Shown: positions 1-55,742 of the stretch, in pieces
How the letters are laid out: every line of letters begins with the position of its first letter
Numbering within the stretch: position 1 is the first letter of the stretch
NCBI GenBank assembly: GCA_964497435.1
Contig: CAZCCD010000003.1
Location: 53,683 to 117,682, forward strand
DNA: 64,000 bases
Source of the DNA: Candidatus Woesearchaeota archaeon
Lineage (GTDB): Archaea; Nanobdellota; Nanobdellia; Pacearchaeales; GW2011-AR1
Direction: 5' to 3'
Notes under the pieces: generated by a model
Seen by the model: only the letters and a program-made list of their open reading frames with translations
The model's database searches: none
Told to the model about the DNA's origin: nothing
Made by a program: the position numbers and the translations under genes

Positions 1-1439
1 AAATCAATTTTTAATTTCATAAATTCCTTGATTTTAATTAAATTATGTTTTTTCCACCATACATATCTCTGCTTTTTAACATTTAATTCTTTTAAGGAAT
101 ATTTCTCAAAAACATTTTTAATCGGGTCTCCGCATAAAAAATCTTCCTCAAAAATTTGAAGATGATCCATTAAATTTATTTCATTAACTTTATTACCTTC
201 AATTGGAAGAGTCCTTGGAACAGCGATGAATGACCTCCCCTCTTTCAAATCAGTTGGTTTAATCTCGATAAGCCCATCTTCCCCTAAAGAAAAAAGAGAG
301 TGATCTTGAGTTACTTTTATCTTTCTTCCTGTAGATGTTAATACTTCATAAATATCTTTTTTAACTTTGTGTTTAATGTATGAGCTTGGTTTAACAAAAA
401 TAATCTTGCCTTTTTCATCAATTGTCATAACTTCTGCATCTATTTTCTTTTCTACAAATTCTTTAATAGTTACATTTCTAATAATTCCTTTTTCCTTCAC
501 AATTATTTTTGAATCACCTGTAACACTGTCTTCAATACTGACGATTCTTGCTTCTGGAGGTATAAAGAATACTATCGCATTCAACAAAGTCGTTTTTCCC
601 GACGCTGTTCCTCCTGTTATAAGTATATTCATCTTATATTCTATTAAAAGCCACAGATAAGCTATCATTTCAGGGCTTAGAGTGTTCATTGACAATAATT
701 TAGGAGGAGTCCAGGGAGTTTTTGTGAATTTTCTAATTGTGAATGTAGGGCCCTTGCTTGTTATGTCTTTAGTGTAAGTTGCATTTACCCTGCTCCCATC
801 AGGAAGACTTCCATCAAGTATAGGATTAGCATATGAAATATATTTCCCGGCTCTTTGTGCAATCTTTTCTATAAAACTAGTAAGCCTTTCAAGGTCATTA
901 AATATAACACTTGTCCTCATATTCCTAAATATTCTATGGACTATGTATATATGATTATCGACTCCATTACACTCTACGTCCTCAACAAAATAATCTTTTA
1001 TAAGAGGATCAACCTCATTATAGCCTACAAAATCTCTAACAATATAATAATAAATTTTAGAGTAAGTTTCGTAACTCATCATTATCCCAAGCTCAACAGC
1101 TATAAGTTTGAATCTCTTGTCAATGTAATCAAGAAGATTATCAAGGCTTTTTTCAACAACCTCCTCAAAGTTAACTAGATCTCTCATTGCAGAAATTATC
1201 TGGTCTTTATATGTTTCTTCTATTTCATTTAATTGAGGTTCTTCAACATCATAAACTAACTCATAGTTTTTAAAATCCCAATAAATATGAGTAAAACAAA
1301 AAGGAGAAACTAAAGCATATCTTACATCTATCTTTGTTTTATCTCGTATTTTTTTTAAATTTGGAACTCTTGGATTAAAGTCCAGAGCTACTCTCGGATA
1401 ACTTTCTATTCCAGGAACCAGTTTACTTTTATTATCCAT
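1..1439 (-). CDS. Type IV pilus/archaellum-family secretion ATPase (FlaI/TadA/VirB11-GspE superfamily), 3'-truncated by window edge, interrupted by an intein
   Basis: Reverse translation from ATG at 1439 gives MDNKSKLVPG...; the conserved ...PDGSRVNATY...GPTFTIRKF region; Walker A GGTASGKTTLLNAI; then ...RIVSIED followed by intein-like sequence (SVTGDSKIIVKEKG..., block-B-like GRKIKVTQDHSLF). Not in ORF track because it runs off the window. Confidence 0.8.
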   Translation of the reverse strand, partial: MDNKSKLVPGIESYPRVALDFNPRVPNLKKIRDKTKIDVRYALVSPFCFTHIYWDFKNYELVYDVEEPQLNEIEETYKDQIISAMRDLVNFEEVVEKSLDNLLDYIDKRFKLIAVELGIMMSYETYSKIYYYIVRDFVGYNEVDPLIKDYFVEDVECNGVDNHIYIVHRIFRNMRTSVIFNDLERLTSFIEKIAQRAGKYISYANPILDGSLPDGSRVNATYTKDITSKGPTFTIRKFTKTPWTPPKLLSMNTLSPEMIAYLWLLIEYKMNILITGGTASGKTTLLNAIVFFIPPEARIVSIEDSVTGDSKIIVKEKGIIRNVTIKEFVEKKIDAEVMTIDEKGKIIFVKPSSYIKHKVKKDIYEVLTSTGRKIKVTQDHSLFSLGEDGLIEIKPTDLKEGRSFIAVPRTLPIEGNKVNEINLMDHLQIFEEDFLCGDPIKNVFEKYSLKELNVKKQRYVWWKKHNLIKIKEFMKLKID

Positions 1440-1977
1440 TTAACACCTCTGTATTTATTAGTGTTTTTCCAGCAACTGTTCCTTTGTTTGCTATCGAAAG
1501 TTTGTAAGGAACAGGAGCTTTATTAAGTGTTTTTGCCTCTTCTTTATTTTGGTATGATATGTTATATACTCCGCTATAGTTGCTTATTAATGTTACTTTT
1601 TTTATCCTTCCTTGATCCTCTGTCCTTGCAATTATACTTCCTACTTGAACGTCTTTTCCAGGCTGTGTAAACTCATGTTTTCCCTCAAGTTCAAAAACAA
1701 TAAAATCCTTCTGGCTATCAATTATTAATTTTCCATCTTTAATCCCTAGGTCAATTATTCTTTTATTTTCAGGCCCGCCTTCTACGACCGAATTGATTAT
1801 TAAGTTTACATCTTCTAACATATTTATACTTTGTTCAATTGTTGCTTTATCCTGTATTTCTTCAACCTTTGGCCTCGCAAATGTCAAGAAAAGGCCTATG
1901 ATTGTTAAAGCTATCAAAGTGTAAATTACAGTTTCAACCCATACCTGACCTTGCTTTCTCTTATATTTATTCACCAT
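1432..1977 (-). CDS. Archaeal type IV pilin-like protein (class III signal peptide)
   Basis: N-terminus MVNKYKRKQGQ|VWVETVIYTLIALTIIGLFL: basic residues, Gly, then a hydrophobic helix, typical of the prepilin peptidase substrate motif. Its stop overlaps the ATPase start by 8 nt. Confidence 0.6.
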   Translation of the reverse strand: MVNKYKRKQGQVWVETVIYTLIALTIIGLFLTFARPKVEEIQDKATIEQSINMLEDVNLIINSVVEGGPENKRIIDLGIKDGKLIIDSQKDFIVFELEGKHEFTQPGKDVQVGSIIARTEDQGRIKKVTLISNYSGVYNISYQNKEEAKTLNKAPVPYKLSIANKGTVAGKTLINTEVLNG

Positions 1978-2219
1978 CTTTTTTATTAAAATAATAAAGA
2001 ATTTGATTATTTAAAGTTAATCAAATTGTTTGACTCATTTTATATAATATTATTTACTTTAGTTTTTACCTTGATTTTTCAGATACTATTATAATCTTTA
2101 ATATAAATTAACTTTAAGGGATATGTTCATTGTAAGTCTTGTTTATTTTTATCATTAATATAAACATCAATTCTTGTATTAAATAGAATTAAGTTTATTT
2201 CATATAACAAAATAAATCT

Positions 2220-2747
2220 TCATATAAAGAAACAATTGTCAACTTCTGTTAATGTATCTGAAGCATCGCACTGGTTTCTGTTAACTACTGGTGCTATTTT
2301 TATTGAATCAGGCCTTCCCATTCCAGCCGAGGTTAAATTATATATGTATGTTAAGCCAGAATTTTTTGCAGGAAGAGCCACTTGAGTGTATGGTTTATTA
2401 TAAGGCCGTACATCAGTTACTGTTTTGTTTGTATAAGTAATCTTAAAACTTTTTGTCTGCCCCACTGCTGATACTGAAACTAAAAGCTCTTGAATTTCTT
2501 TATCTCCTATGTCAACTGAAAAAAGAAGGTAATTTGATGTTGCATTATAACAAGTATACTGGTCATTTAATGATACTTTTCCGAATATATCAAAACAACT
2601 TTCACTTTGTTCTAGCTTTTTTTCAGTTATATTATTTACAACAACCCAAAGCACGCCGACTAGTGTGACAGCAATAAGAATTAAAAGAAGGGTTGCAACT
2701 ACTGTCGCCATTCCTATTTTTTCTTTGTCTTTATTAATTTTTTTCAT
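2220..2747 (-). CDS. Archaeal type IV pilin-like protein (class III signal peptide)
   Basis: N-terminus ...KEKIG|MATVVATLLLILIAVTLVGVLWVVV; the rest is N-glycosylation-sequon-rich (N-x-S/T). Confidence 0.6.
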   Translation of the reverse strand: MKKINKDKEKIGMATVVATLLLILIAVTLVGVLWVVVNNITEKKLEQSESCFDIFGKVSLNDQYTCYNATSNYLLFSVDIGDKEIQELLVSVSAVGQTKSFKITYTNKTVTDVRPYNKPYTQVALPAKNSGLTYIYNLTSAGMGRPDSIKIAPVVNRNQCDASDTLTEVDNCFFI

Positions 2748-3227
2748 CTAAAAAACCTCAATTTCATAACTATTTTGTTTTTCATCGCAAGTATGTGTTC
2801 TTTCCCCTTTTTCAGATGTGCCAAGAAGGACAGGGGTCAATATAATACTTTCGGCAGAGCCAGTATATGAACTTATATCTTCAGAATAGCTTCCTCCTTG
2901 AGCAAGACCTTTGTCAGGCCATGTAGATATGTCTTCTAAATCCATAGACTCTCTGCTTCCTCCTCCAACTATTTTTATCTTCATTCCAAAAATAGGGATG
3001 TTTCCGTCGTTAACAATAGACAACTCTCCATTGTAGTAATCAGCCGTAAACTCTACTTTTTGGCATGTTAACTCAATATTTTCTCCTCCGAATTTTGTTA
3101 TTGTTTCTCCTCCTATTCTCCTAAACCATAAAAATATAATCAATGCAATTACAACAACCATTGCCACTAAAAGCACTGTAGCAATAACAGGAGAGACACC
3201 TTTTTTTTCACTCCTATTTTTTTTCAT
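2748..3227 (-). CDS. Archaeal type IV pilin-like protein (DUF361-like class III signal peptide)
   Basis: N-terminus ...SEKKG|VSPVIATVLLVAMVVVIALIIF, the canonical archaeal pilin pattern. Confidence 0.7.
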   Translation of the reverse strand: MKKNRSEKKGVSPVIATVLLVAMVVVIALIIFLWFRRIGGETITKFGGENIELTCQKVEFTADYYNGELSIVNDGNIPIFGMKIKIVGGGSRESMDLEDISTWPDKGLAQGGSYSEDISSYTGSAESIILTPVLLGTSEKGERTHTCDEKQNSYEIEVF

Positions 3228-3264
3228 TGTTTTAAAAAGGTATCCTTATTTTTAAATTTTTATA

Positions 3265-3825
3265 TTAACTTGAACAGCTTAATATTTCTTTGATTTTTTT
3301 CTCTGCTCCACAATTTGCAAAATCACGCTTATTTTCTCTTTCCTGCCATCTTGCAGGTGTTATTTCTAATGTTGATATAGGGCCTACATTATTTAAATTG
3401 TAAATATGAGTTATTTCGTTTCCAGGATAAAAAGAGTTGTTGTTTCCTTCAGCAAAAAGCACAGCTTCCCTGAATTTATATACATTTCCAGTATTAACTA
3501 GACTATCTATTAAACTTATTGTTGCCTGTTTTTCAGGATTGTCACTGGCCTTTATTATATATCCAGCAATATCAAACCTTCCATTATTGACTAGAGTTAT
3601 ATTCAGCACGCTGCCTGTGCAGTTGTAAAAATAACTTTTAACTCCTATAGATGTTCCATCAGGACATTCAATCTTTTCTTGAGGAACATAAGATTTCATC
3701 CACATATAGAGTATTCCGCCCATTACAACAGCTATGGCTACTAAAAGCACATATCCTATTAGCTCGCTTACACCGCTTCTACTTTTCCAAAATACCTTAG
3801 TTTGTCGCAACATAAATTTCACCAT
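3265..3825 (-). CDS. Archaeal type IV pilin-like protein
   Basis: N-terminus ...KSRSG|VSELIGYVLLVAIAVVMGGILY. Confidence 0.6.
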   Translation of the reverse strand: MVKFMLRQTKVFWKSRSGVSELIGYVLLVAIAVVMGGILYMWMKSYVPQEKIECPDGTSIGVKSYFYNCTGSVLNITLVNNGRFDIAGYIIKASDNPEKQATISLIDSLVNTGNVYKFREAVLFAEGNNNSFYPGNEITHIYNLNNVGPISTLEITPARWQERENKRDFANCGAEKKIKEILSCSS

Positions 3826-4333
3826 TTATTTCTTGAGATATTATGAAATAAAAATTTTCTCCTTTTCTTATTTCAAAAGTGTAATTTGTATCATATTTCT
3901 GGACATTTATTACATACTTAACAGGGCTCCCATATGAAGTTATACTTGATGGAATTGTTATCTTGTTTCCATTATCATATGTAAATGTATCCATATTAAT
4001 TACATCGGGGCCTATTGGTGGTGTTGTCCTGTTTCCTACTATGTATATTATTTCAACATCTTCTCTGACATAACTCGAGAAATTCCTTGTGAAGCTATTC
4101 CACGAATATACTCCAGTATATGCTCCTTGATTTAATATTTTCCCACTTTCAACACCCAATTCTTCAGCAAGTTTTTCTACTCTTGTATTGATTATTTTTT
4201 TTGAAGTGTTTGTTATTAATATAAGGCCTGCCATGAGAGCTATTATGGCCATTGCAGCAATTAAATAAATCTGACCTCTTTTATTCGACCACGCCTGGAC
4301 AAATTGACCTCCTTTATCCTCTTTTTTAATCAT
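3797..4333 (-). CDS. Archaeal type IV pilin-like protein
   Basis: N-terminus ...SNKRG|QIYLIAAMAIIALMAGLILI (KRGQ motif). First gene of a co-directional pilin-pilin-pilin-pilin-pilin-ATPase array. Confidence 0.65.
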   Translation of the reverse strand: MIKKEDKGGQFVQAWSNKRGQIYLIAAMAIIALMAGLILITNTSKKIINTRVEKLAEELGVESGKILNQGAYTGVYSWNSFTRNFSSYVREDVEIIYIVGNRTTPPIGPDVINMDTFTYDNGNKITIPSSITSYGSPVKYVINVQKYDTNYTFEIRKGENFYFIISQEINGEIYVATN

Positions 4334-4375: not shown

Positions 4376-4442
4376 AAAATAAATATAGAGACAAGAACAA
4401 TTTGAATTAATTAAAACTAAAAATCATTTAATCTGAGTTTAC

Positions 4443-4702
4443 GTAGACTCAGAGGTTTGCTGCTTAAAACACCAAAAAGTTTTTCTTATTCTTTCTCGGT
4501 TTTGCGACCCGCCAAGCACCTTAACAAATGTTTAGGGCTGCTCCGATCAAGGCCTGACCCATTTTGCATCTGCAAGATCAAGACGGACAAAACGTCAACG
4601 TCCGAATAAGGGCTTACTGATATTCCAATCACGCCCCTCCTTACAGTCTGCCATAAAGCCCATTTGCAAGCAGCGGAGGGCTAACCCGCCAACCTAGTCT
4701 AC
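4443..4702 (-). ncRNA. Signal recognition particle RNA (SRP/7S RNA), archaeal type (boundaries approximate)
   Basis: A GC-rich island in AT-rich DNA. The minus strand has GGGUCAGGCC...GGAGCAGCC, matching the conserved helix-8 motif GUCAGGUCC/GGAAGCAGCC. The 5' GUAGACU pairs with the 3' AGUCUAC to form a terminal helix. A TATA-like TTTTTAAATAAA sits about 30 nt upstream on the minus strand. Confidence 0.65.
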
Positions 4703-4734
4703 ATTTTTACTTTAAGAATGTTTATTTAAAAACC

Positions 4735-5203: not shown

Positions 5204-5971
5204 TTACTTTATTGGAACAACTTTGTTATTAACAATTATCTGTTTTGGAACCTTACCTTTAGATTTTGAAAAATAATTCCATATTAATATAATTGCAAGT
5301 ATTATAATTATTAATCCAAACGACCTTGCTGGTGATTTAATAAAGTTATTTATACCAGAAAGGAAAGCACCTGTTATGCTATCTGTTACACTTGATTCAC
5401 ATTCCTTAAATGTTGCTGGTTTCAATGTTTCTGTCCCGCAGGCATTTTGATCTTCACAAGTTCTTGTCCCGCATTGGCCTTCTACATTACTCCATTTACT
5501 ACATGACCAGCTTTCTACACATGCTGTTGAGATTCCAGGCTCGTTATTTGAAGATATTGTGATGACAGAACCTCCACCGCCATTGCCACCATTTCCATTA
5601 CCTCCACCTCCACCGCCATTACCCCCATTGCCACCATTTCCATTAGGAGGCAATTCTCCACAACTTCTTGTGTTGAATGGTGGATCACAGTTTTTAGGCC
5701 TCAAATTTTCAGTATCGCATAAAGGATTTGTTTGGATGCAGATAAATGTCTTTTGATTATTCTCCTCACATGTCGTTTCATCCCAGAAACTTGAACTCCA
5801 ATCTTCTTGGCATCCTGCAAAAACTCCTCCGCCAGTGCTTACTTTTAAAAATCCATGCTCTGTTTCAGCGATTGAAAATCCAAATCCTCCAATAGCTAAC
5901 GCTAAAATAAACATCACAATTGCAAATTTTTTTTGTTTCATTTCCATCAGAACGTATTTAATTTTACTCAC
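5204..5971 (-). CDS. Cys-rich secreted, membrane-anchored protein with Gly/Asn-rich linker
   Basis: N-terminal signal/TM, many Cys, an NGNGGNGGNGGGGGGNGNGG linker, C-terminal TM helix. Its start overlaps the stop of the giant gene by 8 nt. Confidence 0.6.
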   Translation of the reverse strand: MSKIKYVLMEMKQKKFAIVMFILALAIGGFGFSIAETEHGFLKVSTGGGVFAGCQEDWSSSFWDETTCEENNQKTFICIQTNPLCDTENLRPKNCDPPFNTRSCGELPPNGNGGNGGNGGGGGGNGNGGNGGGGSVITISSNNEPGISTACVESWSCSKWSNVEGQCGTRTCEDQNACGTETLKPATFKECESSVTDSITGAFLSGINNFIKSPARSFGLIIIILAIILIWNYFSKSKGKVPKQIIVNNKVVPIK

Positions 5972-8900
5972 AATCTAAATCTTCAATATCTATATCTCCA
6001 TCACAATCATTATCTATTGAATCATCACAAACTTCAGTTTCAGGTACACACTCTGGCTCAGGCTCTTCACATATGTTTGTCAAAGATTCAATCCAGTATT
6101 CTAGCTCATGAACCCCAGGTCCTATCGCACTCATGTCTTCTGAATCAAGCTCAAGGTGCAATTCAAATTCTGTCCTGCCATTTATCTCACTGCATTGTAA
6201 CTGAAGGAATTCAGCATCTGTTATAAACCAGCATAATCCTGTTTCAGGGTCCCAGAAATCACCAACTTCTCCACATTCTTGTTCTGTTAAGCCAGATTCA
6301 TGCCTTAATCCAACTGTGGCACTCTCTCCTGTTTCAGGATTTGTTATTATAGCATTCATATCCCCAGGAGTCACAAGGCCTTCTATCTTATTTAGCCAGA
6401 ACTTAATGCTGTTGTCTCCCCTCATGCAAATATTGTAAGTAAAGTCACAAATACCGCCTTCTTCAGGGTCAATTCCGCATATTGCAGGGGTTATAAATTC
6501 AACAAAAATACCATCTAAAAGAGTTTCTTCAACTTCTTTACAATTTTCATTTCCATTACCATCTTCTGCACAGACCTTAAGAATATAATCTCCAGCAGGA
6601 AGTTCTTTGTTCATTATACCTTCCCATGTTACTGTCTGTCCATAATGCACAATATTTAAGTCAATTTCTCTAAGTGGTTCGTCTCCTTCATCTACAGGAG
6701 TTGCCCATAATTCAGCCCATGCTCTTATTACGCCTGATTTTTCATCATCTATTGAAGCAACTATTTTCTGGACACACATTTCTATTTCTCTTTCGTTTGA
6801 ATTAGGATTCCTTATTATTATTTCAGGACCTGCAGAGTCAACATTATCCCATTCAATGTTTGCTTCTCCAACATTTCCTAGGGCATCTCTGCAGAACCAT
6901 TCAATATTATGTAGTGAATCTTCCTGGAAGTTAAATCCATAACCATCTTCTTCTGTTAAAGAACAACAGAAAGGAACCCAATCTTGTGATTCTTCACTAT
7001 ACAATTCTTCAATTTCTCCTCCAAATTGTTTGCAATATTGCTCTGTTAAGAATGGAGGAGTTTCTTGATTATCGTCATCCCATGATATTCTATAACAAAG
7101 AGATTCATGGTCAACAGGATGTGGTTCTCCATCTTTACAGCTTAAAGTTATTGGTGTTTCACCTGTGACAAACCATGCAGGCCATTCTCCTTGAGGTCCG
7201 CATAATTCTTCATCACCTACACAAGGATATTTTGGCTCTCCAACTTCTTTATCTGTTAAAGGAGCTGTATTATCAACAAACACACACTGTTTATTCACTC
7301 TTTCTGTTTTTTCAACATTATCAACACTGTAGTATTCAATTAGGTGGCATGATTCCTCGGTTTTATAGAATGGAATGCCATGATAAGTGTTCCATTCACC
7401 TCGTCCAACAGCTTGCTGGCAAACATCTTGATTCAAACAGTTCTCATCATCAACAAGAGTATTTCTCCAGAAAGTTTCACTTATTCCAGAAGGATGAGGT
7501 GCCTGATCTCCACCATCAAGGTAAACAGCTGTTTCAGAGCTTATCCATGCAGGGAACCATTCTTCTTTTTCTTCATCAAACTCACACATTTCTTTTAAGC
7601 ATAATTCAAGTGCTTCACCATCTTCTCCAGCTTCATATCTGCACCAATCCTGACAAGTAAAGTAAGGACCATCAAATGACTTTGTTGTAACTGGTGGTGT
7701 TTTATCAACAATAAATGTTTCTTCATCAACTACTCTATTTCCTAGAGCATCTTCACACTCTATTACTAGATTATGGCTTGATTCTTCTGGGAATTGAACT
7801 ATAAACTCACTTCCAAGTTCATCATCGCCAGGTATAACATTTCCACCATTAACAGTGTAACTCCATTCACAAGTCACATCATTTACAGGATGAGGTTGAG
7901 GATCTTCAACACTAACATGAATTTCAGTAACACCATCAATATAACATACATCTTGGCTACCCGGTTTTGGAGGGCATTGTCCGTAACTAGGGCCCACAAT
8001 TTCTTTAGTTATTTTAGGAGGCACTGAATCAACAATATCAATTTCTCTATGTGGTTCTTCAGCTGTTCCATCTGAATTTCCAAGAGCATCAACACAATAC
8101 CATTCTAAAACATGTCTTGAATCTTCTTCTTTGTAAATTGTAACTTCTCCATCTTCTTCAACCCAATATTCAGGAGGCCGGCTTCCCTCTAAATAATCTC
8201 TCCAGTAAAGAGTCACATCATCTATTGGATGTGGTTCTTGATCAGCACAAGATAGAGTTATTGGAGTTTGTTGAGTTATGAACCAATCACACTGTCCATC
8301 TTGAGGTTCTGGTGGTTGACCGCCAATTCCACATGTACCTTCTTCAATTTCATAAGCTTTTAAATGATTATTCTCGAACATTCTTACCCAGATAGCACTC
8401 ACTGGGAAAGTAGCATCATCACACTCTAAATCTTCAGGCCTGTCTCCTGGTGCAGAAAATTCTCCGAGATTTGTCTTTGAGTCTTTGTCAAATCTAAATA
8501 TTTTATCCCCACCATTATTTGCTAAATATAAATCTTCTCCTCCAACAGCAATACCGCTATTCCCAAAAGGAATTCCTGGGGCAAAGCTATCAACAACTGA
8601 ACCAGTTAAATTTAATTCATAAACAGTTGGTCCAACATCACGACTAAACCATATTCTATCATCGCTGTCAGAATTTGGATCGTTTTCGTCATATGCTAAA
8701 CCATCACAAAAATGGAAATGATCTCCTGGAAGTGTTTCTATTAGTGTTACATCACCATTTAATTCTAATTTATATAACTTATTTGGAACACCATTTGAAC
8801 AAGCCCATATTACATTTCTCTTTGCATCATAACCCATTGCACCTAAATTTATTGCCGGACTTGTAGCCAACTCTCCTATTTCTGAGCCATCGTCTGGATT

Positions 8901-10544
8901 AATTAATTTTATAACTGTTGTTTCATCAGGAACATACAAAACTGTGCCATCAAAAGCTACTCCGACATTACTGAAAGCACCAACATCATCTGACATTGTT
9001 ATATCTCTAAGAAGATCTCCAGGTGAATTATGCTCTTCGTTATTTCCATTTTCTCCGTTAATATTATCTCCTCCATTTCCATTTTCCTCACAAGCAACTT
9101 TTGGCTCTCCAACTTCTTTCTTTGTGATTGGTGGCAAAGCATCAACAATATCTAATTCAAAGTGATGCCTTTCTTCATTAGTACAACCATCACTTGCCCA
9201 GTATTCAATCAAATGGCAGGAATCATCTATTAAATTCAAGTGAACATCTTCATTAGGCAATCCTTGCCCAGAATCTTTAAGAGTCCATACAGGTTCTCTT
9301 ACAGTGCAATCTTCACTAAACCATATTCTCCAATTTATTACAGGATTGTCAGAGATTTCATGGTCAGGAGTGTCGGGGTCTTCGGCAGAAAGCCAGATTT
9401 CTGTTCCAGGCTTAACATAATAGCAACCATCTGTTAAAGCATTGCCATTTGCTGTTGTATAATCACAATTAAAAGAAACCTCGTCTGCAAAATCAATTTT
9501 CTTTTCTGTTACTGGAGGAACAGTATCTTTTATGAAAGAAACAATAGGATTGAATGTGAATTTACCCCAGTTTTCTTGTCCGTCTTTTCCATGTAACTGG
9601 ACATAATGTGTTCCCTCACTTAAATCATCTAAATCAATAGTAGCTTCAACATCTTCACATCTTTCATTGAATGAGCCATCAGAAGCAGTCATTGGAATTC
9701 CCCGCCAATTTATTGGATTATCTTCATCAATAAAATATTCAGCAGCTTGTATTCTTGACTCATCATCACAGACATTTCCAGATACAATAGGATCATCACC
9801 ACAAACTAAAAGTTCTTCTGGGTTACATTCATCATTTAACTTAATTCCATTTTCATGTTGCAAATTATCTCCTTCTTCACATGTTGGGTAAAAAGGAGGC
9901 AGGCAGTCAACATCTATTCTTATTGTTTCACAATCTCCCCAATTTCCAGCAACATCTTGTCCTCTAACATGTACATTAATGCTTCCGTCTTGTGTACCCA
10001 CTCCGCTTTTTGTTACAGCTTCAACCAATGAATTATAAAGCCCGTCTGTTGCATTAAGTGGATTTCCACTCCCTTCTGCTCCGCAAGTTGCTCCTCCAAG
10101 GAAATATTCAGCTTCTGCAATTGCAGAACACTGATCAGTCTCTAAGGCATCTATTTTTATCTTGCAGGCATCAACAACTTTTACAGCAGTTAAATCAGAA
10201 GTAACAGGGCCAGTTTCGTCAGGAAACTCATTAAAAACACAACCCTGTTGAACATCACAAGAAAAATCTCCACACTGATCTCCAGGTTCACAAAGAGAAT
10301 CATCAGGAGTATAAACACATCCTGTTTGTTCGTTACAAGAATCAACTGTACAAGAAACACCATCGTCACAAACTATAGGAGTATTCACACACCCACCACC
10401 CTCAACACATTCATCTATTGTGCAGGCATTTCCGTCGTCACAGTTCTGTGGAGAACAAGCACTCACAGAAGAACCAAAATTAATTATCCCAATTATAAAT
10501 ATCAGCAAAACTAAAGAAATTTTCACGTCTTTTCTTAAACCCAT
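5964..10544 (-). CDS. Giant secreted Cys-rich surface protein (1526 aa) with CxxxNxCTxDxC repeats, beta-propeller-like region and C-terminal MopE-like CxDxDNDCDG motif
   Basis: Signal peptide MGLRKDVKISLVLLIFIIGIINFGSSVSA; repeats CDDGNACTIDEC, CDDGVSCTVDSC; C-terminus CDDSIDNDCDGDIDIED. Confidence 0.75.
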   Translation of the reverse strand: MGLRKDVKISLVLLIFIIGIINFGSSVSACSPQNCDDGNACTIDECVEGGGCVNTPIVCDDGVSCTVDSCNEQTGCVYTPDDSLCEPGDQCGDFSCDVQQGCVFNEFPDETGPVTSDLTAVKVVDACKIKIDALETDQCSAIAEAEYFLGGATCGAEGSGNPLNATDGLYNSLVEAVTKSGVGTQDGSINVHVRGQDVAGNWGDCETIRIDVDCLPPFYPTCEEGDNLQHENGIKLNDECNPEELLVCGDDPIVSGNVCDDESRIQAAEYFIDEDNPINWRGIPMTASDGSFNERCEDVEATIDLDDLSEGTHYVQLHGKDGQENWGKFTFNPIVSFIKDTVPPVTEKKIDFADEVSFNCDYTTANGNALTDGCYYVKPGTEIWLSAEDPDTPDHEISDNPVINWRIWFSEDCTVREPVWTLKDSGQGLPNEDVHLNLIDDSCHLIEYWASDGCTNEERHHFELDIVDALPPITKKEVGEPKVACEENGNGGDNINGENGNNEEHNSPGDLLRDITMSDDVGAFSNVGVAFDGTVLYVPDETTVIKLINPDDGSEIGELATSPAINLGAMGYDAKRNVIWACSNGVPNKLYKLELNGDVTLIETLPGDHFHFCDGLAYDENDPNSDSDDRIWFSRDVGPTVYELNLTGSVVDSFAPGIPFGNSGIAVGGEDLYLANNGGDKIFRFDKDSKTNLGEFSAPGDRPEDLECDDATFPVSAIWVRMFENNHLKAYEIEEGTCGIGGQPPEPQDGQCDWFITQQTPITLSCADQEPHPIDDVTLYWRDYLEGSRPPEYWVEEDGEVTIYKEEDSRHVLEWYCVDALGNSDGTAEEPHREIDIVDSVPPKITKEIVGPSYGQCPPKPGSQDVCYIDGVTEIHVSVEDPQPHPVNDVTCEWSYTVNGGNVIPGDDELGSEFIVQFPEESSHNLVIECEDALGNRVVDEETFIVDKTPPVTTKSFDGPYFTCQDWCRYEAGEDGEALELCLKEMCEFDEEKEEWFPAWISSETAVYLDGGDQAPHPSGISETFWRNTLVDDENCLNQDVCQQAVGRGEWNTYHGIPFYKTEESCHLIEYYSVDNVEKTERVNKQCVFVDNTAPLTDKEVGEPKYPCVGDEELCGPQGEWPAWFVTGETPITLSCKDGEPHPVDHESLCYRISWDDDNQETPPFLTEQYCKQFGGEIEELYSEESQDWVPFCCSLTEEDGYGFNFQEDSLHNIEWFCRDALGNVGEANIEWDNVDSAGPEIIIRNPNSNEREIEMCVQKIVASIDDEKSGVIRAWAELWATPVDEGDEPLREIDLNIVHYGQTVTWEGIMNKELPAGDYILKVCAEDGNGNENCKEVEETLLDGIFVEFITPAICGIDPEEGGICDFTYNICMRGDNSIKFWLNKIEGLVTPGDMNAIITNPETGESATVGLRHESGLTEQECGEVGDFWDPETGLCWFITDAEFLQLQCSEINGRTEFELHLELDSEDMSAIGPGVHELEYWIESLTNICEEPEPECVPETEVCDDSIDNDCDGDIDIEDLDCE

Positions 10545-10767
10545 GTTTAATTTTACATTTTAGTGTATTTAAACATTATTGTGGTGCAGGGAATATTTCG
10601 TAACTTTTAATTTAACAATAGCTAACTTTTCCAACTTGTTAATAGTGATAATATTGGTTTTTGTTTTTTAGATACCACCCAATTCTATCCAAAAGCACCT
10701 CTTACTTTACAGCTCACTATTCAGTAAATTATTTATATTCCTTTCCATTAGGTTTGATAGGAGATAA

Positions 10768-12082
10768 TATGTGGAACGATAGAAAAGACGAAGCATACAA
10801 GTTAGGAGTTAGAGACGGTCAGAGAGGCGGTTTTTTAGATGATTTTACCCATAGTCTTTCGAAAGGTATAAACACTTCTGAGAGTGATAAGGTGTATGAT
10901 GAAGGTTATGTATATGGTGCAAATCATAGGTACGATGTGAGATCTTTTGGAAAATCTGACAATTCTAAATCTGCATGGGGTTCTACAGAATCTGATAATT
11001 CTGATTTTCAGTCTTCTTATAGCGATGGGAATTCTTACGATGGTTGGAGCTCTGATAGTGGTGGGAGTTCTAAGTCAAGTGGTGGAAGTGGATTTTTCTC
11101 TTTTGTTGTTCGGACATGTATCACTATTGCCTTGCTTGGTGCTTTTATGAAAGCTTGTAATGAAAATTTTGGTGGCGATAATCGTGGGAGTATTGTGAAT
11201 ACTTATGGTCGTGGTAATCGTGGAGGTACTGGTAATCCTGTGCCTGGATACACCCCCTCTCATTATCCAGTTCCTGTCGTGCAACACACTCGTAGGAGCA
11301 ATAAAAAGTATAAAGTTAAAGCTATATATGAGGTTCGTCCAGGCGATACGATGTGGGAAATTGCTAAGACGTTTGGTGTACCCATTTCGGCGCTACTAGA
11401 GGTAAATAATATCAGTCGTGGTTCTCGTATTTATGTGGATCAAAAACTTCGTATTCCTTTGATGGCTCATAGTTTGAACGAGCAGAATGAAATCAACAGA
11501 GGCCTAGAGGTTGTGATTGCCTCTACTCCCAATAAGAATATCCAGACTACTTATAAAGTAAGGCGAGGTGACACGCTCTATGATATTGCCCGCCGATTTG
11601 GAACCACGCCTACCAATTTGCTAGAAATTAATGGACTTCATAGAAATAGCCGAATACACATAGGGCAGGAATTAAATGTAACAGGACAGGATGAAGGTGG
11701 TCGTAGAAAGAGTCTTGTGAATAAAGTTACAGAATTCCAGAAATCGGATAGTAACCAAAGCTCGATTCCGGAAATAGTAATACCTGAAAAGGAGTTCCAG
11801 AAGTTACAGAATGACATTCGTGAGATGAAGGAACAAGTTGTACGAGACAAAATTGATGCTCTGAATGAAATAGGGGAGGCATACAAGGCCCATCAAATAT
11901 CAGAAAAAGAAAAAAATGAATATGTTAAGTTAGTCACAAATTATAATCCCATTATCGATAACTTCAGAACCAAAGTAGTCGGTTTTGAAATGTTCCAAAA
12001 ACGGCAAAAAGATAAGTTAATTGAACTGATTTACAGCGATGAGATAAATTCAGATTCTATACGTGTCGCGTCTGACTTCTAG
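10768..12082 (+). CDS. LysM-domain membrane protein (2 LysM repeats, coiled-coil C-terminus)
   Basis: GGAG RBS then ATG at 10768; a central TM (FFSFVVRTCITIALLGAFM); two LysM repeats (YKVKAIYEVRPGDTMWEIAKTFGVPISALLEVNNI..., YKVRRGDTLYDIARRFGTTPTNLLEINGL...). Locally higher GC than surroundings. Confidence 0.75.
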
Positions 12083-13497: not shown

Positions 13498-13710
13498 ATG
13501 AGATTAAAAAAGATACCAAGGACAGATTTAGAGTATGTTGAATTTTATGCTAAAAAACTTAAAGAAAACCCTGAATTTTTCAAACAGCAGAAAGAGTTAA
13601 TAGAAAGCCAGCTAGAAAGCAGCTCTTCTTTGGCTAAAAAAAGGTTTCCAAAAGAAGACTTTAAAATTCAGGCAAGAATTTATCTAAAGAAAATAGGGCT
13701 TCTTTCTTAA
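13498..13710 (+). CDS. Hypothetical small protein
   Basis: 70-aa ORF, charged, plausible coding composition. Confidence 0.3.
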   Translation: MRLKKIPRTDLEYVEFYAKKLKENPEFFKQQKELIESQLESSSSLAKKRFPKEDFKIQARIYLKKIGLLS

Positions 13711-14507
13711 TAACTATACCATAAGACTAATTTTCCTTCATCGTCTCTTAAAAATAGGCTGTCTCCTGTTTCTGTCCAGATATATTCTTCTTCATTCCAG
13801 AATAAAACATTATCTTTATCTTCTTCATATCCAATCTCTATCCTAATTTCTTTATTTAATGTAAAATTAGAAAAAGTGAATATCTTTCTTCCTTCATCTT
13901 TTATTGTCCAGTTGTCTAAATTACAAGAAAATGAACAGCTGTTTTCCAAGATTACACTTTGGTCTTTTACATTTAATTGTTTTAATTCTATACAACTAGA
14001 ACATTCATCTTCTGATTTTTCACATAAATTCAAATTATTTTCAAGGCAGATATTCCAAGCAGCTTTAAAATCATTATAATATTTATCTTTACCTTGAGGG
14101 AAATAAAAGTTTGCAAAGCCATTTTCAACTAATTTAAGATTTACATTTTCTTCATCAACTATAACATATCTTAATTTTCTTTTGTATAAATCTAAATCCT
14201 GTCCAACCCTCTCCATCCTTACAAACCTATTAAGAATTAAATTTTCTAAAAATTTTTTAGATTCATCGTAATACAACTGGCCTTTTTCAGGAGTGTTGAT
14301 TCCAAGAAGCCTTACACTTGTTCCGTTAACTTTTATTGTATCTCCATCAATTACTCTCTCAACTATTCCAACTTCATAATCATTAAGCCAATTAGTCAGC
14401 AGTTTGTTAAGAAAAGGATAGTCTATTATAAAAAGAATTAATATTAACAATGATATTAAGAGTTTCAGCTTTATTTTTTCTTTTTCTTTTTTTTCCAGTT
14501 TAACCAT
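13707..14507 (-). CDS. Membrane-anchored thermonuclease (staphylococcal nuclease/SNase-like) with C-terminal beta-rich domain
   Basis: N-terminal TM; VIDGDTIKV...VRLLGINTPE matches the SNase catalytic core (DGDT...RLxGIDxPE). Confidence 0.75.
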   Translation of the reverse strand: MVKLEKKEKEKIKLKLLISLLILILFIIDYPFLNKLLTNWLNDYEVGIVERVIDGDTIKVNGTSVRLLGINTPEKGQLYYDESKKFLENLILNRFVRMERVGQDLDLYKRKLRYVIVDEENVNLKLVENGFANFYFPQGKDKYYNDFKAAWNICLENNLNLCEKSEDECSSCIELKQLNVKDQSVILENSCSFSCNLDNWTIKDEGRKIFTFSNFTLNKEIRIEIGYEEDKDNVLFWNEEEYIWTETGDSLFLRDDEGKLVLWYSY

Positions 14508-44498: not shown

Positions 44499-46451
44499 CT
44501 ACCTTCTTCTAAATACGACAATCAGAATCAATAACAAAACAATTCCTATTCCAAAAACAGGCAAGAGTATTAACCAAATGTTGCTAACTTCACCTAGACT
44601 GAAATTGTTTTTTGGACTTTCTGTTTTTTTATCTTGGTCAGTAACTTTTATCGCTGGTTCTTCTAATTTAATAGTTGGAGTGAAAGCGCCCGTCTTTTCT
44701 TTACCAGAATTATCGACTAATAAATTTGAATCAAGAGTGTTTCTTATTACATCATTATCCTTTTTATCATCTTTCTTTTTATCAATATCAAAATCTCTTG
44801 TTTCTGAAATTCCTTTATTTCCATGAATATCAACACATTCTATTCTCCAATTGTAACCCTCATCGCTGTCTAACTCTTGCCTGAATATATTTTCTACATC
44901 TTTTTCAATAACATTATCTAAATCCTCAAGATCTCCGTCGATAATTAAACTACAACTTGCTATATTTGACTCATCAGAAACTTTATACCTGAAAGTTATA
45001 GTCTTATCGCTTTTTGATGTTTCAAAATCTTCATTGTCGTCTGGATCGAGTAAAGTAATTGTTGGAGGAGTTGTGTCTTTGGATAATTCTTCTTCAATCG
45101 CGTTTTCAAATACTTCATATGGTTGTGCTCCGCTAATTAATCTTCCGTTAACAAAAAATGCTGGCACACCTGCAACACCTTTACTAATACCCTCATTAAT
45201 ATCATCTTCTACTCTTGACCCAATATTACTGTTATAAAAACAACTACTAAATTTATTCATATCAAGCCCTATTTCCTCGGCATAATTTTTTAAATCTGTG
45301 TCTGATAAGGCATTTTGATTTTTGTACAGAAAATCTATGTACTCAAAAAACTTATTTTGATATGAGGCACATTCTGCAGCTATTGCTGAGTTTTTGGCGT
45401 GAGGATGAATGCTCTTTAAAGGAAAATGCTTAAGAACTAATTTTACTTTTCCTGTATCTATATAATTTTTCTTTATCAACGGGAAAGTGTTGTTGTACCA
45501 TCTTGCATCAAAAGGACCTTCAAAGTCAGTGAACATTTCTAAAGTAACCGGCGCAGTTTTTTGTCCTAATGTTCTTTGAAGGTCAGTTCTAGGAGGATGT
45601 TCCACTTCAAAAGGCAAATCACTAGGATATTTCTCTAAATATGCTTCTACTAATGGTGATGGAAATACCAACTCTTCTGCTGAATCTTGGATTGCTAGAA
45701 CGAAAATTATTAAATTTTCATGAGGCCAGATTATAGCTATAATACCCTCATCTTTAAAAGTGTAAACGAAATTCTCATTAATCTTTTCTAATGTTAATTC
45801 TTCTTCACCTTCTTTAAGAAATTCTTTTAAGGACAAGCTGTCTTCAAACTCAATAACATTCACCCCATAAAGATTACCATCACCTTTGTCATAGTATGAA
45901 AAATACATTTTAAGAATTCCTTCATCAGATTCTGGAATTTCAATCATTGCAGATTTATCATATTTGTAATCGTCTATATCTTCTATTATCATGACCTCTC
46001 TAATTTCTGTTAGATCTACGTAAAAATCAGCTTTTGCATTTCCAGAATTTTCAAATTCATCTTCACATGTTACGCTTATTATGTAATTTTCTCCTTCTTG
46101 TGTTTCTTTAAGATTTTTAATTTGTTGCATATGGAGTTTTCCTCCAGTTATTTCCATTTCAACTGGGGGCATTCCCCCTCCATAGTATGGACCACGAAAG
46201 CCAAGGCTATACAAACAAATAGCATTTTCATCTGTTTCAACAACTAAAGATGTAAAATCTCCTTTTACTGTTGAGCCGTTTTCTGGCAAGATTATTTCTA
46301 TTATTGGAGAAACCTCTTCTGGAGGTGATGTTTCAAAATCTTCATACGTATAATTAAAAGTTTTATAAAGATCTCTATCCAAAGCACTTACAACCCCAGC
46401 TAGAATTATCACCCCTAAAATTGCAAGGAACAAGATACTATTTTTTGCCAT
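44499..46451 (-). CDS. Secreted, C-terminally membrane-anchored protein with DsbA-like thioredoxin-fold domain lacking the CxxC active site
   Basis: Signal peptide; the DsbA-like region has DFEGPFDARWY where DsbA carries the CPxC motif (recalled here as DFQCPFC); C-terminal TM WLILLPVFGIGIVLLLILIVVF. Confidence 0.55.
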   Translation of the reverse strand: MAKNSILFLAILGVIILAGVVSALDRDLYKTFNYTYEDFETSPPEEVSPIIEIILPENGSTVKGDFTSLVVETDENAICLYSLGFRGPYYGGGMPPVEMEITGGKLHMQQIKNLKETQEGENYIISVTCEDEFENSGNAKADFYVDLTEIREVMIIEDIDDYKYDKSAMIEIPESDEGILKMYFSYYDKGDGNLYGVNVIEFEDSLSLKEFLKEGEEELTLEKINENFVYTFKDEGIIAIIWPHENLIIFVLAIQDSAEELVFPSPLVEAYLEKYPSDLPFEVEHPPRTDLQRTLGQKTAPVTLEMFTDFEGPFDARWYNNTFPLIKKNYIDTGKVKLVLKHFPLKSIHPHAKNSAIAAECASYQNKFFEYIDFLYKNQNALSDTDLKNYAEEIGLDMNKFSSCFYNSNIGSRVEDDINEGISKGVAGVPAFFVNGRLISGAQPYEVFENAIEEELSKDTTPPTITLLDPDDNEDFETSKSDKTITFRYKVSDESNIASCSLIIDGDLEDLDNVIEKDVENIFRQELDSDEGYNWRIECVDIHGNKGISETRDFDIDKKKDDKKDNDVIRNTLDSNLLVDNSGKEKTGAFTPTIKLEEPAIKVTDQDKKTESPKNNFSLGEVSNIWLILLPVFGIGIVLLLILIVVFRRR

Positions 46452-53456: not shown

Positions 53457-55742
53457 TTAAGAAATATTAATTATAATATTATTACTCATGCTAACGAGCA
53501 AATCTGCTTCTTCATTTTTTATTTTGTTTTCTCTTTGTGCGTCAACTTCTTTTATAAATGACTGAAGCTTATTAATCGCATCTTGTCTCTGATTAGAATT
53601 TAATGCGGTCAATGCATCTTTCGCGGCCTGAAGTTTAGTATCTAAACTACTTTCAATACCTTGCTGTAAATTTAATGTTTTAACTTGATTTATTAATTCC
53701 TCTATAGTATCCTTGCAACCATTTGAATTTGCATCAAAGCCGCTCGAATCTTCTAGAGGGCACTGATCGAATTCATCACGAATGCCATCGCCATCTCTGT
53801 CGAGTTGGAGGATTAAGTTTACGGGCCGAATAGGGTCAATTGGTTGGCCTAGAGAGGCAAAACCACTAGCAATAACCTCATCAACAATAATTTCTCCATC
53901 CGAACTAGACATTTGAAATGTTATATTATAAGGACCATCTCCTATACCTATGCCAGTAATATTATAAAATCCCGAGATAATTTCGCCAAGAAGAATTTCT
54001 TGGGGTTCTGTTCCTGGTCCAGAGTAACCTACACTATCGCCTATTTCATTAACACTCGAATTTAAAGTAGGATCAAAGCCTATTCTTCTCCCTAAAGGAT
54101 CTGTAAAAAGAATATTAATTGGGGAGTTACCCTTACCTGTACCTGCCTTACAATCCTCATCTCCTATGAGAGCATAATGTACAGCATCTCTTGTACCATA
54201 AGGTCTGTGTAATCCTGCTTTTTCAGCTAAAGTGTCTATATCTTCACCTGATATACTTTTTTTATTTTTATTACTTGAATTTATGCATGAAGTTACACCA
54301 TTAATAACTTCACAAATTACTATATCCACTGCTTTTCCTACTTCATGTAGAGATGTATTCTCCTTGCACACACCATCTCTAATTCCATGTTTAGCAATTT
54401 CTTCATCTACCTTTTTCTTAAGTTCTTTACATTTTGAATTATTAAAATCAGCATTAAGTAATGAAGTATTCCTTTGTTTTATTTCATAAAAATGCGCTTG
54501 ATAAGCTGTTGGTCTAAACCCGGATGTAACCTGAAAAGTCTGAATACCGGGTAAATTCAATATAAGATTTTCAAAATTATCAACAGAATTGTTAAGAGTC
54601 TGGTTCATATGAGCACGATCCACTATCTTACCATTTGCAGCTTCAAATTGTTGCGCCATGTTAGGAACAGGAGGAGTATAATTAACTTCTAGCTCGCTAA
54701 TTGGGGTAAGATCTTTAATAATATTACCTGACTTATCAACGCATTCAGGTTTGGAGGGGCATGAAAACGTACATCCTATTTTACCATCATCATTCCATCC
54801 ATCAGTGGTATCACAGGTATTATCCTTTCCTGAACCCGATGAGTTTACTATTATAAAATCACCACGTGCATTAAAACATGCCTTATTGTTATTTACTGTA
54901 TTATTATGTGAGTTTCTAAAACCAATACCATGAAGAGTACTATTTTCTACTATATTATTAGTAATAGTATTGAAATTGGAAGAAAAAATAGTGATAAATC
55001 TATTCCCAGCAGGACCTTTCAAAATATTTGATGATAGTATGTTAAAGCTAGAATCAAAAAATATAATAAAATTAAGAGTGTTTGATGAGACAGTGTTAAA
55101 ATATGAATTTCTAAGAGTAATTAATCCTGAACCGAATCCAGTTTGTGTATTAGAAGTTATCACATTGAAGTTGGAGTTAAACAGATGAACATCATTAGAA
55201 TTCGAGGTAATCGTGTTGGTATTAGAAGATATAAGTGAAATTGCACCTATATTTGAAGCTAGTAGGTTAGAGTCTGAATCGACAATACGAATAGAACCAA
55301 GATTATAGAGAAGAGTGTTAGCATTAGCATTAGTTAATTCTATTAGTCCGTATATTGCCCTGCAATTTTTTATTGTGACTCCAAACTTAGAATCCAAAAA
55401 TATACTATTAAGGTCAGCATCATTGCAATCAAAAGTGACGGAGTTTGAGCAGATATCTGCGATAAATCTAATTGGAGAATCAGTTGGGCCATTAAGTACA
55501 TATGAATAAGTAACATCACAACCAGTACCCCTTGCATTTATGCATTCAGGGTCAGTCCACGGGCATTCATCACAGGTATTAGGAATTCCATCAGGACCAT
55601 CACCTGGACCATGATTTGGTGGGCACCCTCCTTGCATGCAACCACGATGAATACAACCTGGATGAGATAGAACTAAATTATCACCAGTAAAAATGATTAT
55701 AAATGTAAAAATTATTATTAGATTTATTTTTTTATTTTTCAA
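53457..55742 (-). CDS. Secreted right-handed parallel beta-helix repeat protein with C-terminal Ca-binding-like Asp-rich motif
   Basis: Signal peptide; tandem ~22-aa repeats (NTITSNSNDVHLFNSNFNVITSN...); DRDGDGIRDEFDQC. Confidence 0.6.
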   Translation of the reverse strand: MKNKKINLIIIFTFIIIFTGDNLVLSHPGCIHRGCMQGGCPPNHGPGDGPDGIPNTCDECPWTDPECINARGTGCDVTYSYVLNGPTDSPIRFIADICSNSVTFDCNDADLNSIFLDSKFGVTIKNCRAIYGLIELTNANANTLLYNLGSIRIVDSDSNLLASNIGAISLISSNTNTITSNSNDVHLFNSNFNVITSNTQTGFGSGLITLRNSYFNTVSSNTLNFIIFFDSSFNILSSNILKGPAGNRFITIFSSNFNTITNNIVENSTLHGIGFRNSHNNTVNNNKACFNARGDFIIVNSSGSGKDNTCDTTDGWNDDGKIGCTFSCPSKPECVDKSGNIIKDLTPISELEVNYTPPVPNMAQQFEAANGKIVDRAHMNQTLNNSVDNFENLILNLPGIQTFQVTSGFRPTAYQAHFYEIKQRNTSLLNADFNNSKCKELKKKVDEEIAKHGIRDGVCKENTSLHEVGKAVDIVICEVINGVTSCINSSNKNKKSISGEDIDTLAEKAGLHRPYGTRDAVHYALIGDEDCKAGTGKGNSPINILFTDPLGRRIGFDPTLNSSVNEIGDSVGYSGPGTEPQEILLGEIISGFYNITGIGIGDGPYNITFQMSSSDGEIIVDEVIASGFASLGQPIDPIRPVNLILQLDRDGDGIRDEFDQCPLEDSSGFDANSNGCKDTIEELINQVKTLNLQQGIESSLDTKLQAAKDALTALNSNQRQDAINKLQSFIKEVDAQRENKIKNEEADLLVSMSNNIIINIS

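Follow-up and report, generated by a model that had tools for sequence, protein, structure and literature searches.

Organization of the gene pair

A window of 64,000 nucleotides (nt), corresponding to positions 53,683 to 117,682 of contig CAZCCD010000003.1 (assembly GCA_964497435.1, Candidatus Woesearchaeota archaeon), was analysed around two consecutive genes that encode a giant cysteine-rich surface protein and, immediately downstream, a small membrane protein, referred to below as the giant and the small protein. The coordinates of both genes, of their domains and of the neighbouring features are collected in Table 1. The window is AT-rich (~31% GC) and archaeal in its gene content, with five open reading frames (ORFs) that have pilin-type (class-III) signal peptides, a FlaI/PilB-type ATPase, aminoacyl-tRNA synthetases, aIF2-type factors and an archaeal signal recognition particle (SRP) RNA. 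The nearest relatives of the two genes under study were found in metagenome-assembled genomes (MAGs) that carry the labels Nanoarchaeota, Pacearchaeota, Woesearchaeota or Aenigmatarchaeota, which places the organism among the DPANN archaea and most probably in the GTDB phylum Nanoarchaeota.

Both ORFs described in the initial annotation are real, that of the giant, whose product is identical to P0001 of the NCBI protein set, and a 255-residue ORF with a GTG start (5204..5971, minus strand) for the small protein. The overlap between the stop of the first and the start of the second, from which translational coupling had been proposed, exists only for the GTG form. The public-database product P0121 is the 247-residue form that starts at ATG 5947, and in 39/39 aligned members of the small family the start lies 6-10 residues ahead of the hydrophobic core; on these grounds ATG 5947 is most likely the start of the small gene, the GTG-5971 start was discarded and the overlap is an ORF-finder artefact. 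The junction reads ...GAT TGT GAG TAA aattaaatacgttctg ATG GAA ATG AAA..., and therefore the genes are tightly linked without coupling of the overlap type. As the spacer contains no T-run and is too short for a promoter, the two genes are probably co-transcribed. In eight relatives with called genes the spacers ranged from -23 to +41 nt, and in two further relatives, for which only a crude ORF call was available, they measured 24 and 94 nt. A TATA-like box (TTTAAATA, positions 10565-10575, minus strand) was read by eye ~26-33 nt upstream of the ATG of the giant, a position compatible with an archaeal transcript that has a short leader or none.

Table 1. Coordinates of the gene pair, its domains and neighbouring features (window numbering, except for the last row)
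Feature	Position	Strand	Remarks
Giant surface protein gene	5964..10544	-	1526-residue ORF (ORF listing)
Sec-type signal peptide, residues 1-29 (...GSSVSA/C)	10458..10544	-	hydropathy; homologue N-termini aligned by eye
Three Cys-rich Dicty_CTDC-type repeats, residues 30-105	10230..10457	-	PF00526
Two related Ig-like domains, residues 106-337	9534..10229	-	pattern '..AEYF..DG.....G.H.....D..GNWG' read directly
OmpL47-like/Ig-like domain 1 (residues 338-470) and first strand region of domain 2 (residues 470-485, 'LPPITKKEVGEPKVAC')	9090..9533	-	five-repeat alignment
Five-bladed beta-propeller, residues 486-752	8289..9089	-	AlphaFold2 model and Foldseek
Rest of OmpL47-like domain 2 and domains 3-5, residues 753-1238	6831..8288	-	each ending '..ES.H.IE(Y/W)...D.(L)GN..'
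Ig-like domain (inferred), residues 1239-1345	6510..6830	-	weak Y_Y_Y/FlgD_ig-type matches
Conserved C-terminal domain (CTD), residues 1346-1498, ending '..IGPGVHELEYWIESLTNIC'	6051..6509	-	co-occurs with the small partner gene
Acidic Cys-rich MopE-like tail, residues 1499-1526	5967..6050	-	variable among relatives
Spacer, giant TAA to small ATG	5948..5963	-	16 nt
Small partner gene	5204..5947	-	247 residues from ATG 5947
Two six-Cys units of the small gene	5399-5521 and 5660-5812	-
Conserved ITG tail, 'ITG[AG]V[IV]G..(F.KSK.G)', transmembrane segment and K/R cluster	5258-5380	-	small protein residues 190-230
Archaeal SRP RNA (RF01857)	4441-4704	-	full-length match, 83.4 bits, E 6e-19, below gathering score 96.5
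Five pilin-like genes, class-III signal peptides	1432..4333	-	downstream of the pair
FlaI/PilB-type (T2SSE) pilus ATPase, 5' part, runs off window start	1..1439	-	carries intein
Pilin clusters in relatives	L007 21215-23818; L009 16075-18732; L035 16242-19355

Architecture of the giant protein

The giant contains 70 Cys (4.6%) and is strongly acidic, with 322 D+E vs. 81 K+R residues and a net charge of about -240; only 2 N-x-S/T sequons were counted in its 1526 residues. Its hydropathy profile bore out the predicted signal peptide as an N-terminal hydrophobic segment, and no further transmembrane-like segment was detected by the same method, implying that the protein has no membrane anchor of its own. 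Anchoring as a lipoprotein through the lipobox-like string 'VSAC' was also considered and rejected, as this string is not kept in relatives, where 'VSAW' or the like often stands in its place.

Repeats of the form CxxxNxCTxDxC, earlier described as of myxococcal type, are indeed present after the signal peptide, but the family that they match is PF00526 (Dicty_CTDC; 60 bits on residues 1-105 and 48.1 bits on the full protein, in three stretches, cutoff 27), whereas TIGR02232 (myxo_disulf_rpt, cutoff 20.8 bits) gave no match at E<=1 in an NCBIfam scan of the full giant. PF00526 is the only family to which the giant belongs by curated threshold, and it covers <6% of its length. With respect to the Cys repeats of Dictyostelium and myxobacteria and to MopE, the corresponding modules make up <10% of the giant and are not conserved across its partner-bearing family.

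Most of the remaining protein can be described, as we propose, as a rod of Ig-like and OmpL47-like domains. The two Ig-like domains that follow the Cys repeats gave weak Pfam matches to Big_7/Big_13. Further on, five copies of ~100-150 residues each share the pattern 'PP.T.K..G.P...C ... T.I.L...D..PHP ... ES.H.IEY...D.LGN'; these repeats surfaced only by motif-guided alignment, as a self-BLAST at 1e-3 found no internal repeats. One of them matched NF047446 (OmpL47-type) at residues 1045-1083 with 33.8 bits (E 3.5e-8), under the 40-bit cutoff, so that we speak of a resemblance to the OmpL47-type domain without curated membership.

The central part of the giant had been read as beta-propeller-like, with NHL or YVTN repeats as candidates, and the fold was borne out by modelling. 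The AlphaFold2 model of residues 486-752 was all-beta, with 19 strands in ~5 blades, a mean predicted local distance difference test score (pLDDT) of 83.5 and a predicted template-modelling score (pTM) of 0.83. A Foldseek search of the PDB with this model returned 1736 matches at E<=0.001, the best 50 of which were all beta-propellers; the top TM-scores (0.60-0.72) corresponded to 5-bladed glutaminyl cyclases (0.63-0.72 for 3mbr/3nol) and the lowest E-values to NHL/WD40 propellers, with a TM-score of 0.56 for the NHL propeller of TRIM2. At the sequence level, on the other hand, the NHL and YVTN hidden Markov models did not match the giant, for which only Phytase-like and Vgb_lyase appeared, at E 0.05-0.1.

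The propeller splits OmpL47-like domain 2 between 'EPKVAC' and 'DWFITQQ'. In most homologues, residues 1-485 and 753-1495 of the giant were aligned contiguously and the propeller was missing, and among family members it was carried only by P0002, P0003, P0014 and the L009 protein. Homologues of the propeller were also found as standalone secreted proteins of 316-424 residues (P0125-P0131), two of which have PEF-CTERM-like tails ('IPEFTVIGGG..RRRK'). The existence of these standalone proteins suggests that the propeller module may have been captured into the giant by domain insertion.

After the last Ig-like domain the giant ends in the CTD and a short acidic tail. Comparison of the CTD profile with Pfam and the PDB gave noise alone, e.g. 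C1q-like at E~1. In 15/16 CTD sequences the number of Cys was odd, made up of an even core and a lone Cys located 5-12 residues after the final 'YWI' (Cys1492 here), which may serve in an intermolecular disulfide or in oligomerisation. The tail contains 'CDDSIDNDCDGDID', which resembles half of the PF11617 motif and had been taken for a MopE-like motif. The string is there, but PF11617 (Cu-binding_MopE) did not match the full-length giant in the Pfam scan, and with the last 47 residues in isolation it reached 19.3 bits (E=0.0014), under the cutoff of 27 and covering profile positions 14-29 of 30, i.e. half of the motif. Moreover, in partner-bearing relatives the CTD is itself the end of the protein or is followed by a lamin-tail domain (LTD): in P0002 and P0004 an LTD follows the CTD, and in the short contigs L003 and L004 the upstream gene has an LTD-type end. 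The stretch beyond the CTD thus varies between relatives, and conservation does not extend to the MopE-like tail, which was ruled out as the element that couples the giant to its partner.

The small partner protein

The small protein starts with a signal peptide (residues 1-27), followed by a six-Cys module (46-96), a Gly/Asn linker (~100-133) and a second six-Cys module (143-183), and ends with a 'SITGAF' juxtamembrane helix (191-202), a transmembrane segment (206-229) and a Lys-rich basic tail. Thus, the Asn/Gly linker and the C-terminal transmembrane segment first noticed in it are both present. This layout, in which the 'ITG' helix would be amphipathic and the basic tail cytoplasmic, is that proposed for a type-I membrane protein. 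No N-glycosylation sequon was found in it. In an AlphaFold2 model built from a 39-sequence alignment, the two modules were predicted with pLDDT values of 85-93, the linker was disordered and the ITG and transmembrane elements were helical. A Foldseek comparison of the model with the PDB gave nothing below E=4, and the sequence had no Pfam match.

The 39 full-length members aligned (50%-identity representatives of 210-270 residues and like build) conserve invariant Cys and Trp residues and the ITG-transmembrane tail. Both modules are copies of one ~45-residue unit, C.E.W.C..WS.C..G.Q.R.C.D.N.CGT..LKP....C, whose pattern of W, S, C and R we take to be reminiscent of thrombospondin type-1 repeats. 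In a profile search of 1.84 billion representatives, this unit was detected in 2319 proteins at E<=1e-3, often in tandem (3-12 copies) and beside CARDB, archaeal S-layer, FG-GAP, fn3 and peptidoglycan-binding domains.

The ITG tail was also found at the C-termini of P0011, P0037, P0062 and the product of L113 8034-8735, and so it is shared by small anchors and self-anchored giants. When six ITG tails were compared with the NCBIfam CTERM models (PGF-, PEF- and LPXTG-type), none matched above cutoff, while the tail of the standalone propeller protein P0125, used as control, did match generic anchor models. The tail could act as a novel signal for sorting or processing, or be just a conserved juxtamembrane helix.

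Conservation of the pair in related archaea

The giant falls in a large and so far unnamed family (405 matches) of hypothetical proteins from DPANN MAGs. Loci were sampled from both sides, starting from the small protein through GTDB genomes and metagenomes, and starting from the giants through the contigs that encode them, and a locus was counted when it had a CTD-bearing giant-family gene with readable downstream DNA. A gene of the small family lay directly downstream of the giant and on the same strand in 13/13 independent loci, namely the window, L005, L006, L007 (=L008/L010/L033), L009 (=L030), L032, L035, L038, L065, L101, L110, L111 and L112. The nine partners that were aligned showed 27-51% identity to the small protein of the window. 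The comparison of related genomes thus establishes the small gene as a conserved partner of the giant, in agreement with the linkage first put forward from the window alone. Some of the CTD-bearing 'giants' were just 930-970 residues long (L035, L038) and were also followed by the partner, and therefore the partner tracks the CTD and not the size of the protein. The proteins of L014, L022, L042, L054, L074, L097, L050 and others, 'full-length-like' by tblastn, proved to be longer tandem-Cys-module proteins and were left out of the pairing count.

The architecture of the family was variable even between close relatives, with propeller insert, LTD, ice-binding-like and disintegrin-like modules. 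No description of the giant family, the CTD, the Cys module, the ITG tail or the pairing was found in the open-access literature.

The small protein as a candidate anchor of the giant

The initial annotation had left open whether the small protein is the membrane anchor of the giant or a receptor for it. Several family members provide their own anchor, and these relatives favour the first option. P0037, a family member of 1746 residues, ends in a Gly linker, two Cys modules, the ITG helix, a transmembrane segment and a basic tail, and this C-terminus aligns to residues 39-220 of the small protein with E=3e-12. A second arrangement was found in P0028, which is devoid of CTD and whose next gene encodes a 233-residue variant anchor composed of a signal peptide, an fn3 domain, a Gly/Ser linker, 'AGITGNAIANFSKSKAG', a transmembrane segment and KKK. 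The same fn3-linker-ITG-transmembrane string is fused at the C-terminus of the self-anchored P0011 (E=1e-9), and no partner gene lies downstream of P0011, the one self-anchored relative checked in this respect. The self-anchored members (P0037, P0011, P0054 and P0062) have N-terminal Ig-like domains and OmpL47-like repeats in common with the giant of the window, but lack the CTD and carry as a fused extension (Gly linker plus Cys modules or fn3, then ITG, transmembrane segment and basic tail) what is a separate gene in the window.

Thus, one and the same anchor module occurs in two settings, as the fused end of the large protein or as the product of the next gene, which indicates a functional and usually physical link. 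Because the architecture of the small protein is found fused at the C-termini of self-anchored relatives, an anchor is favoured over a receptor, and together with the 13/13 pairing this makes the small protein most likely the membrane anchor or stalk of the giant; binding between the two proteins is what we infer from these comparisons.

The reading that we favour, with moderate confidence, is that of a split surface adhesin, in which a rod-shaped array of Ig-like domains, bearing outer modules that vary, would be tethered to the cell by a dedicated small stalk and anchor. The small protein would act as a detachable membrane anchor plus stalk, and the giant would be held at the cell surface through its CTD, which would dock on the small protein in a presumably non-covalent complex. 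The variable N-terminal and propeller modules would then face outward and bind a partner cell or surface, the putative binding modules of the giant in the window being the N-terminal Cys repeats and the inserted 5-bladed propeller. Docking through the CTD, co-transcription, outward orientation and an adhesive role are all predictions drawn from sequence comparison. A giant of this kind had been pointed out before as an adhesin-like candidate for cell-cell interaction, and in fact it is a secreted, disulfide-rich, multi-domain protein with the build of an adhesin in a DPANN-type archaeon, for which adhesion to a host can be postulated.

In the way the labour is shared between its two proteins, the proposed adhesin would recall the SlaA (canopy) and SlaB (anchor) pair discussed below. 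A similar build is known from bacterial fibrillar adhesins, which consist of a repeated Ig-like stalk, a distal binding domain and a C-terminal anchor (PMC8286594, PMC9210967). The giant shares with them the long tandem Ig-like/OmpL47-like stalk, the variable putative binding modules distal to the anchor and the fast domain turnover. It differs from them in its archaeal host, in having its presumed anchor in a separate gene instead of an LPXTG or transmembrane tail, and in being rich in disulfides where Ca2+ or isopeptide bonds stabilise the bacterial proteins. The Pfam scans brought up no recognised adhesive domain in the giant, so that the propeller and the Cys repeats are candidates only.

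Several points weigh against a split adhesin. Contact between the giant and the small protein is putative, and their adjacency could be explained by co-regulation alone. The CTD, proposed as the docking site, gave only the noise-level matches described above. The ~45-residue Cys unit recurs in many archaeal surface proteins unrelated to the small protein, and its presence alone is consequently unspecific. The number of Cys in the small protein is even (6+6), which gives no reason to expect a covalent disulfide to the giant. Finally, among the 69 family members with an OmpL47-like core, 19 had the CTD and none of these (0/19) a C-terminal transmembrane segment, while such a segment with a basic tail was present in 7/69, none of them (0/7) with the CTD; this exclusivity agrees with the anchor model, but is statistically not strong, with ~1.9 overlaps expected by chance and 43 members that have neither. 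Should the anchor model be wrong, the finding would shrink to one more hypothetical giant surface protein.

Alternative explanations and significance

Among the alternatives, a two-component S-layer covering the whole cell, with the giant as lattice canopy (SlaA-like) and the small protein as membrane stalk (SlaB-like), deserves consideration, even if we hold it to be unlikely. SlaA and SlaB are described in 10.1101/2023.10.27.564410, which also states that no DPANN S-layer protein has been determined. As in the Sulfolobales, a gene for a large, anchorless, secreted protein with Ig-like domains is followed by one for a small protein that has a signal peptide and, at its C-terminus, a single transmembrane helix as stalk/anchor, and the labour would be split in the same way between canopy and anchor. 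The pair is, besides, widespread in Nanoarchaeota-type genomes, some of whose family members are self-anchored at the C-terminus like single-component archaeal S-layer proteins. The differences concern both partners: in place of a coiled coil, the small protein has a stalk made of a disordered Gly/Asn linker plus two disulfide modules, and the giant is Cys-rich, modular and so variable in architecture between close relatives that adhesins are a more typical comparison. Sequence similarity between the window pair and SlaA/SlaB was not detectable; a phmmer search with the giant against all PDB chain sequences, a set that presumably includes the SlaA and SlaB entries, gave 0 matches at E<=1. In addition, N-glycosylation sites are almost absent from the pair (2 sequons in the giant, none in the small protein), whereas the archaeal S-layer proteins of 10.1101/2023.10.27.564410 carry many.

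It is also conceivable, although we consider it improbable, that the two proteins are merely co-expressed and have no physical link, the giant being released or held by electrostatic or Ca2+-mediated interactions and the small protein acting as an independent short receptor. Against it speak the immediate adjacency at 13/13 loci, with partners as divergent as 27-51% identity (nine aligned), and the two independent fused architectures, both of which would be difficult to account for if the proteins had no functional and physical relationship. In its favour, thousands of surface proteins contain the generic Cys module found in the small protein, and in L005, L011, L035 and L112 there follow further small transmembrane proteins, which have TSP_3 repeats and suggest a general 'surface island'.

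Returning to the split adhesin, a giant Cys-rich surface protein in a DPANN archaeon is unsurprising in itself, and it is the conserved split-anchor arrangement that offers a testable handle on the attachment surface of uncultured cells. In our view, the pair is a split-anchor form of an archaeal adhesin or S-layer-like protein of large size, the anchor of which would be provided in trans. We know of no characterised surface protein of Pace-/Woesearchaeota-type DPANN archaea; to the question of how ultra-small DPANN cells hold their hosts the locus contributes a concrete and conserved candidate, consisting of the anchorless giant with its swappable outer modules, its putative small anchor and an adjoining set of archaeal pilus genes. 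The CTD, the ~45-residue Cys module and the ITG-transmembrane tail are three unannotated elements that could become profile families for DPANN annotation. A far more speculative extension, to which we give little credence as a whole, is that the pair is a host-attachment device of these archaea, in which swappable hypervariable heads (propeller, LTD, ice-binding-like, disintegrin-like) would be mounted on a constant anchor through non-covalent CTD docking, with the ITG helix, transmembrane segment and K/R tail as an unrecognised archaeal surface-sorting or processing signal and a five-pilin machine cooperating with it.

Genomic neighbourhood

The genes of a putative machine of this kind lie downstream of the pair. 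A class-III signal, K/R-G followed by a hydrophobic stretch, was recognised in 5/5 pilin-like ORFs, one of which matched Pilin_N with 20.8 bits, under the cutoff of 25.2. In L007, L009 and L035, as in the window, five collinear pilin-like genes, orthologous between these loci, and a T2SSE ATPase gene lie on the same strand within ~6 kb after the pair, and L011/L034 and L037, whose contigs break off there, contain at least three of the pilin-like genes; in total, and including these partial clusters, the linkage was observed at six loci with different giants (seven contigs). A preprint (10.1101/2020.05.14.094862) reports that DPANN genomes lack type IV pili systems.

The DNA between the pair and the pilin-like genes differs from one locus to another. 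In L007 and L009 it encodes an S8 protease with FG-GAP and dockerin domains, in L009 also an S51 peptidase, and in L005, L011, L035 and L112 the small TSP_3 membrane protein occupies this position. In the window, an apparent non-coding gap of 870 nt is filled by the SRP RNA, which a default Rfam scan missed on account of its sub-gathering score; no remnants of L007 genes were found in this gap by tblastn with the 150-residue gene product and the S8 protease. Because the linkage is not universal, the intervening content varies and the SRP RNA lies in the gap, the pilus genes were treated as a neighbouring surface module and not as part of the same operon as the pair.

In bacteria, PilY1 is a large Sec-exported, propeller-bearing tip adhesin that is encoded in an operon with about five minor-pilin-like genes and presented by the minor pilins, and the propeller of the giant next to the five pilin-like genes and the T2SSE ATPase recalls this arrangement. 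Nevertheless, that the giant is a PilY1-like adhesin on the neighbouring type-IV-pilus-like machine, with the small protein as assembly or docking factor, is very improbable, since there is no homology to PilY1, the 5-bladed propeller is an optional, lineage-specific insert missing from most partner-bearing family members, L005, L006, L111 and L112 have the pair and no pilin cluster in the flank read, the SRP RNA gene in the window and a protease of 1.4 thousand residues (the S8 enzyme) in L007 and L009 stand in between, and the signal peptide of the giant is Sec-type and not class-III.

The ATPase gene of the window is interrupted right after 'ARIVSIEDS' by an intein (Pfam Intein_splicing, 45 bits, cutoff 35.8). 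Its orthologues in L007 and L009 match residues 3-305 only, with 76% identity, and the L009 protein is an uninterrupted protein of 521 residues.

Other genes of the window also encode exported or wall-related proteins. Divergently oriented next to the giant (10661-12082, plus strand) lies a gene for a protein with two LysM (peptidoglycan/chitin-binding) domains. A secreted Cys-rich protein of 761 residues (53457-55742, minus strand) has beta-helix-like Asn-rich repeats and a stretch 'H..GKAVD', and gave no Pfam hit; we take this stretch to resemble those of LAS/M15 cell-wall peptidases. Both could be a sign that the organism interacts with bacterial cell walls. A third gene (44499-46451, minus strand) encodes a surface protein of 650 residues with a signal peptide, DsbA/Thioredoxin_4 and Ig-like domains and a C-terminal transmembrane segment followed by RRR. 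Its CxxC site, expected from the family motif, presumably reads 'FTDFEGPFDARW', and the protein may represent an inactive DsbA-like module in a genome rich in Cys-rich exported proteins. Finally, a secreted protein with a staphylococcal nuclease domain and an LTD is encoded 3 kb upstream of the giant (13707-14507, minus strand), and a protein of the same type was found just upstream of the giant in L005 (2905-3717), L009 (4716-5495) and L035 (5330-6127).

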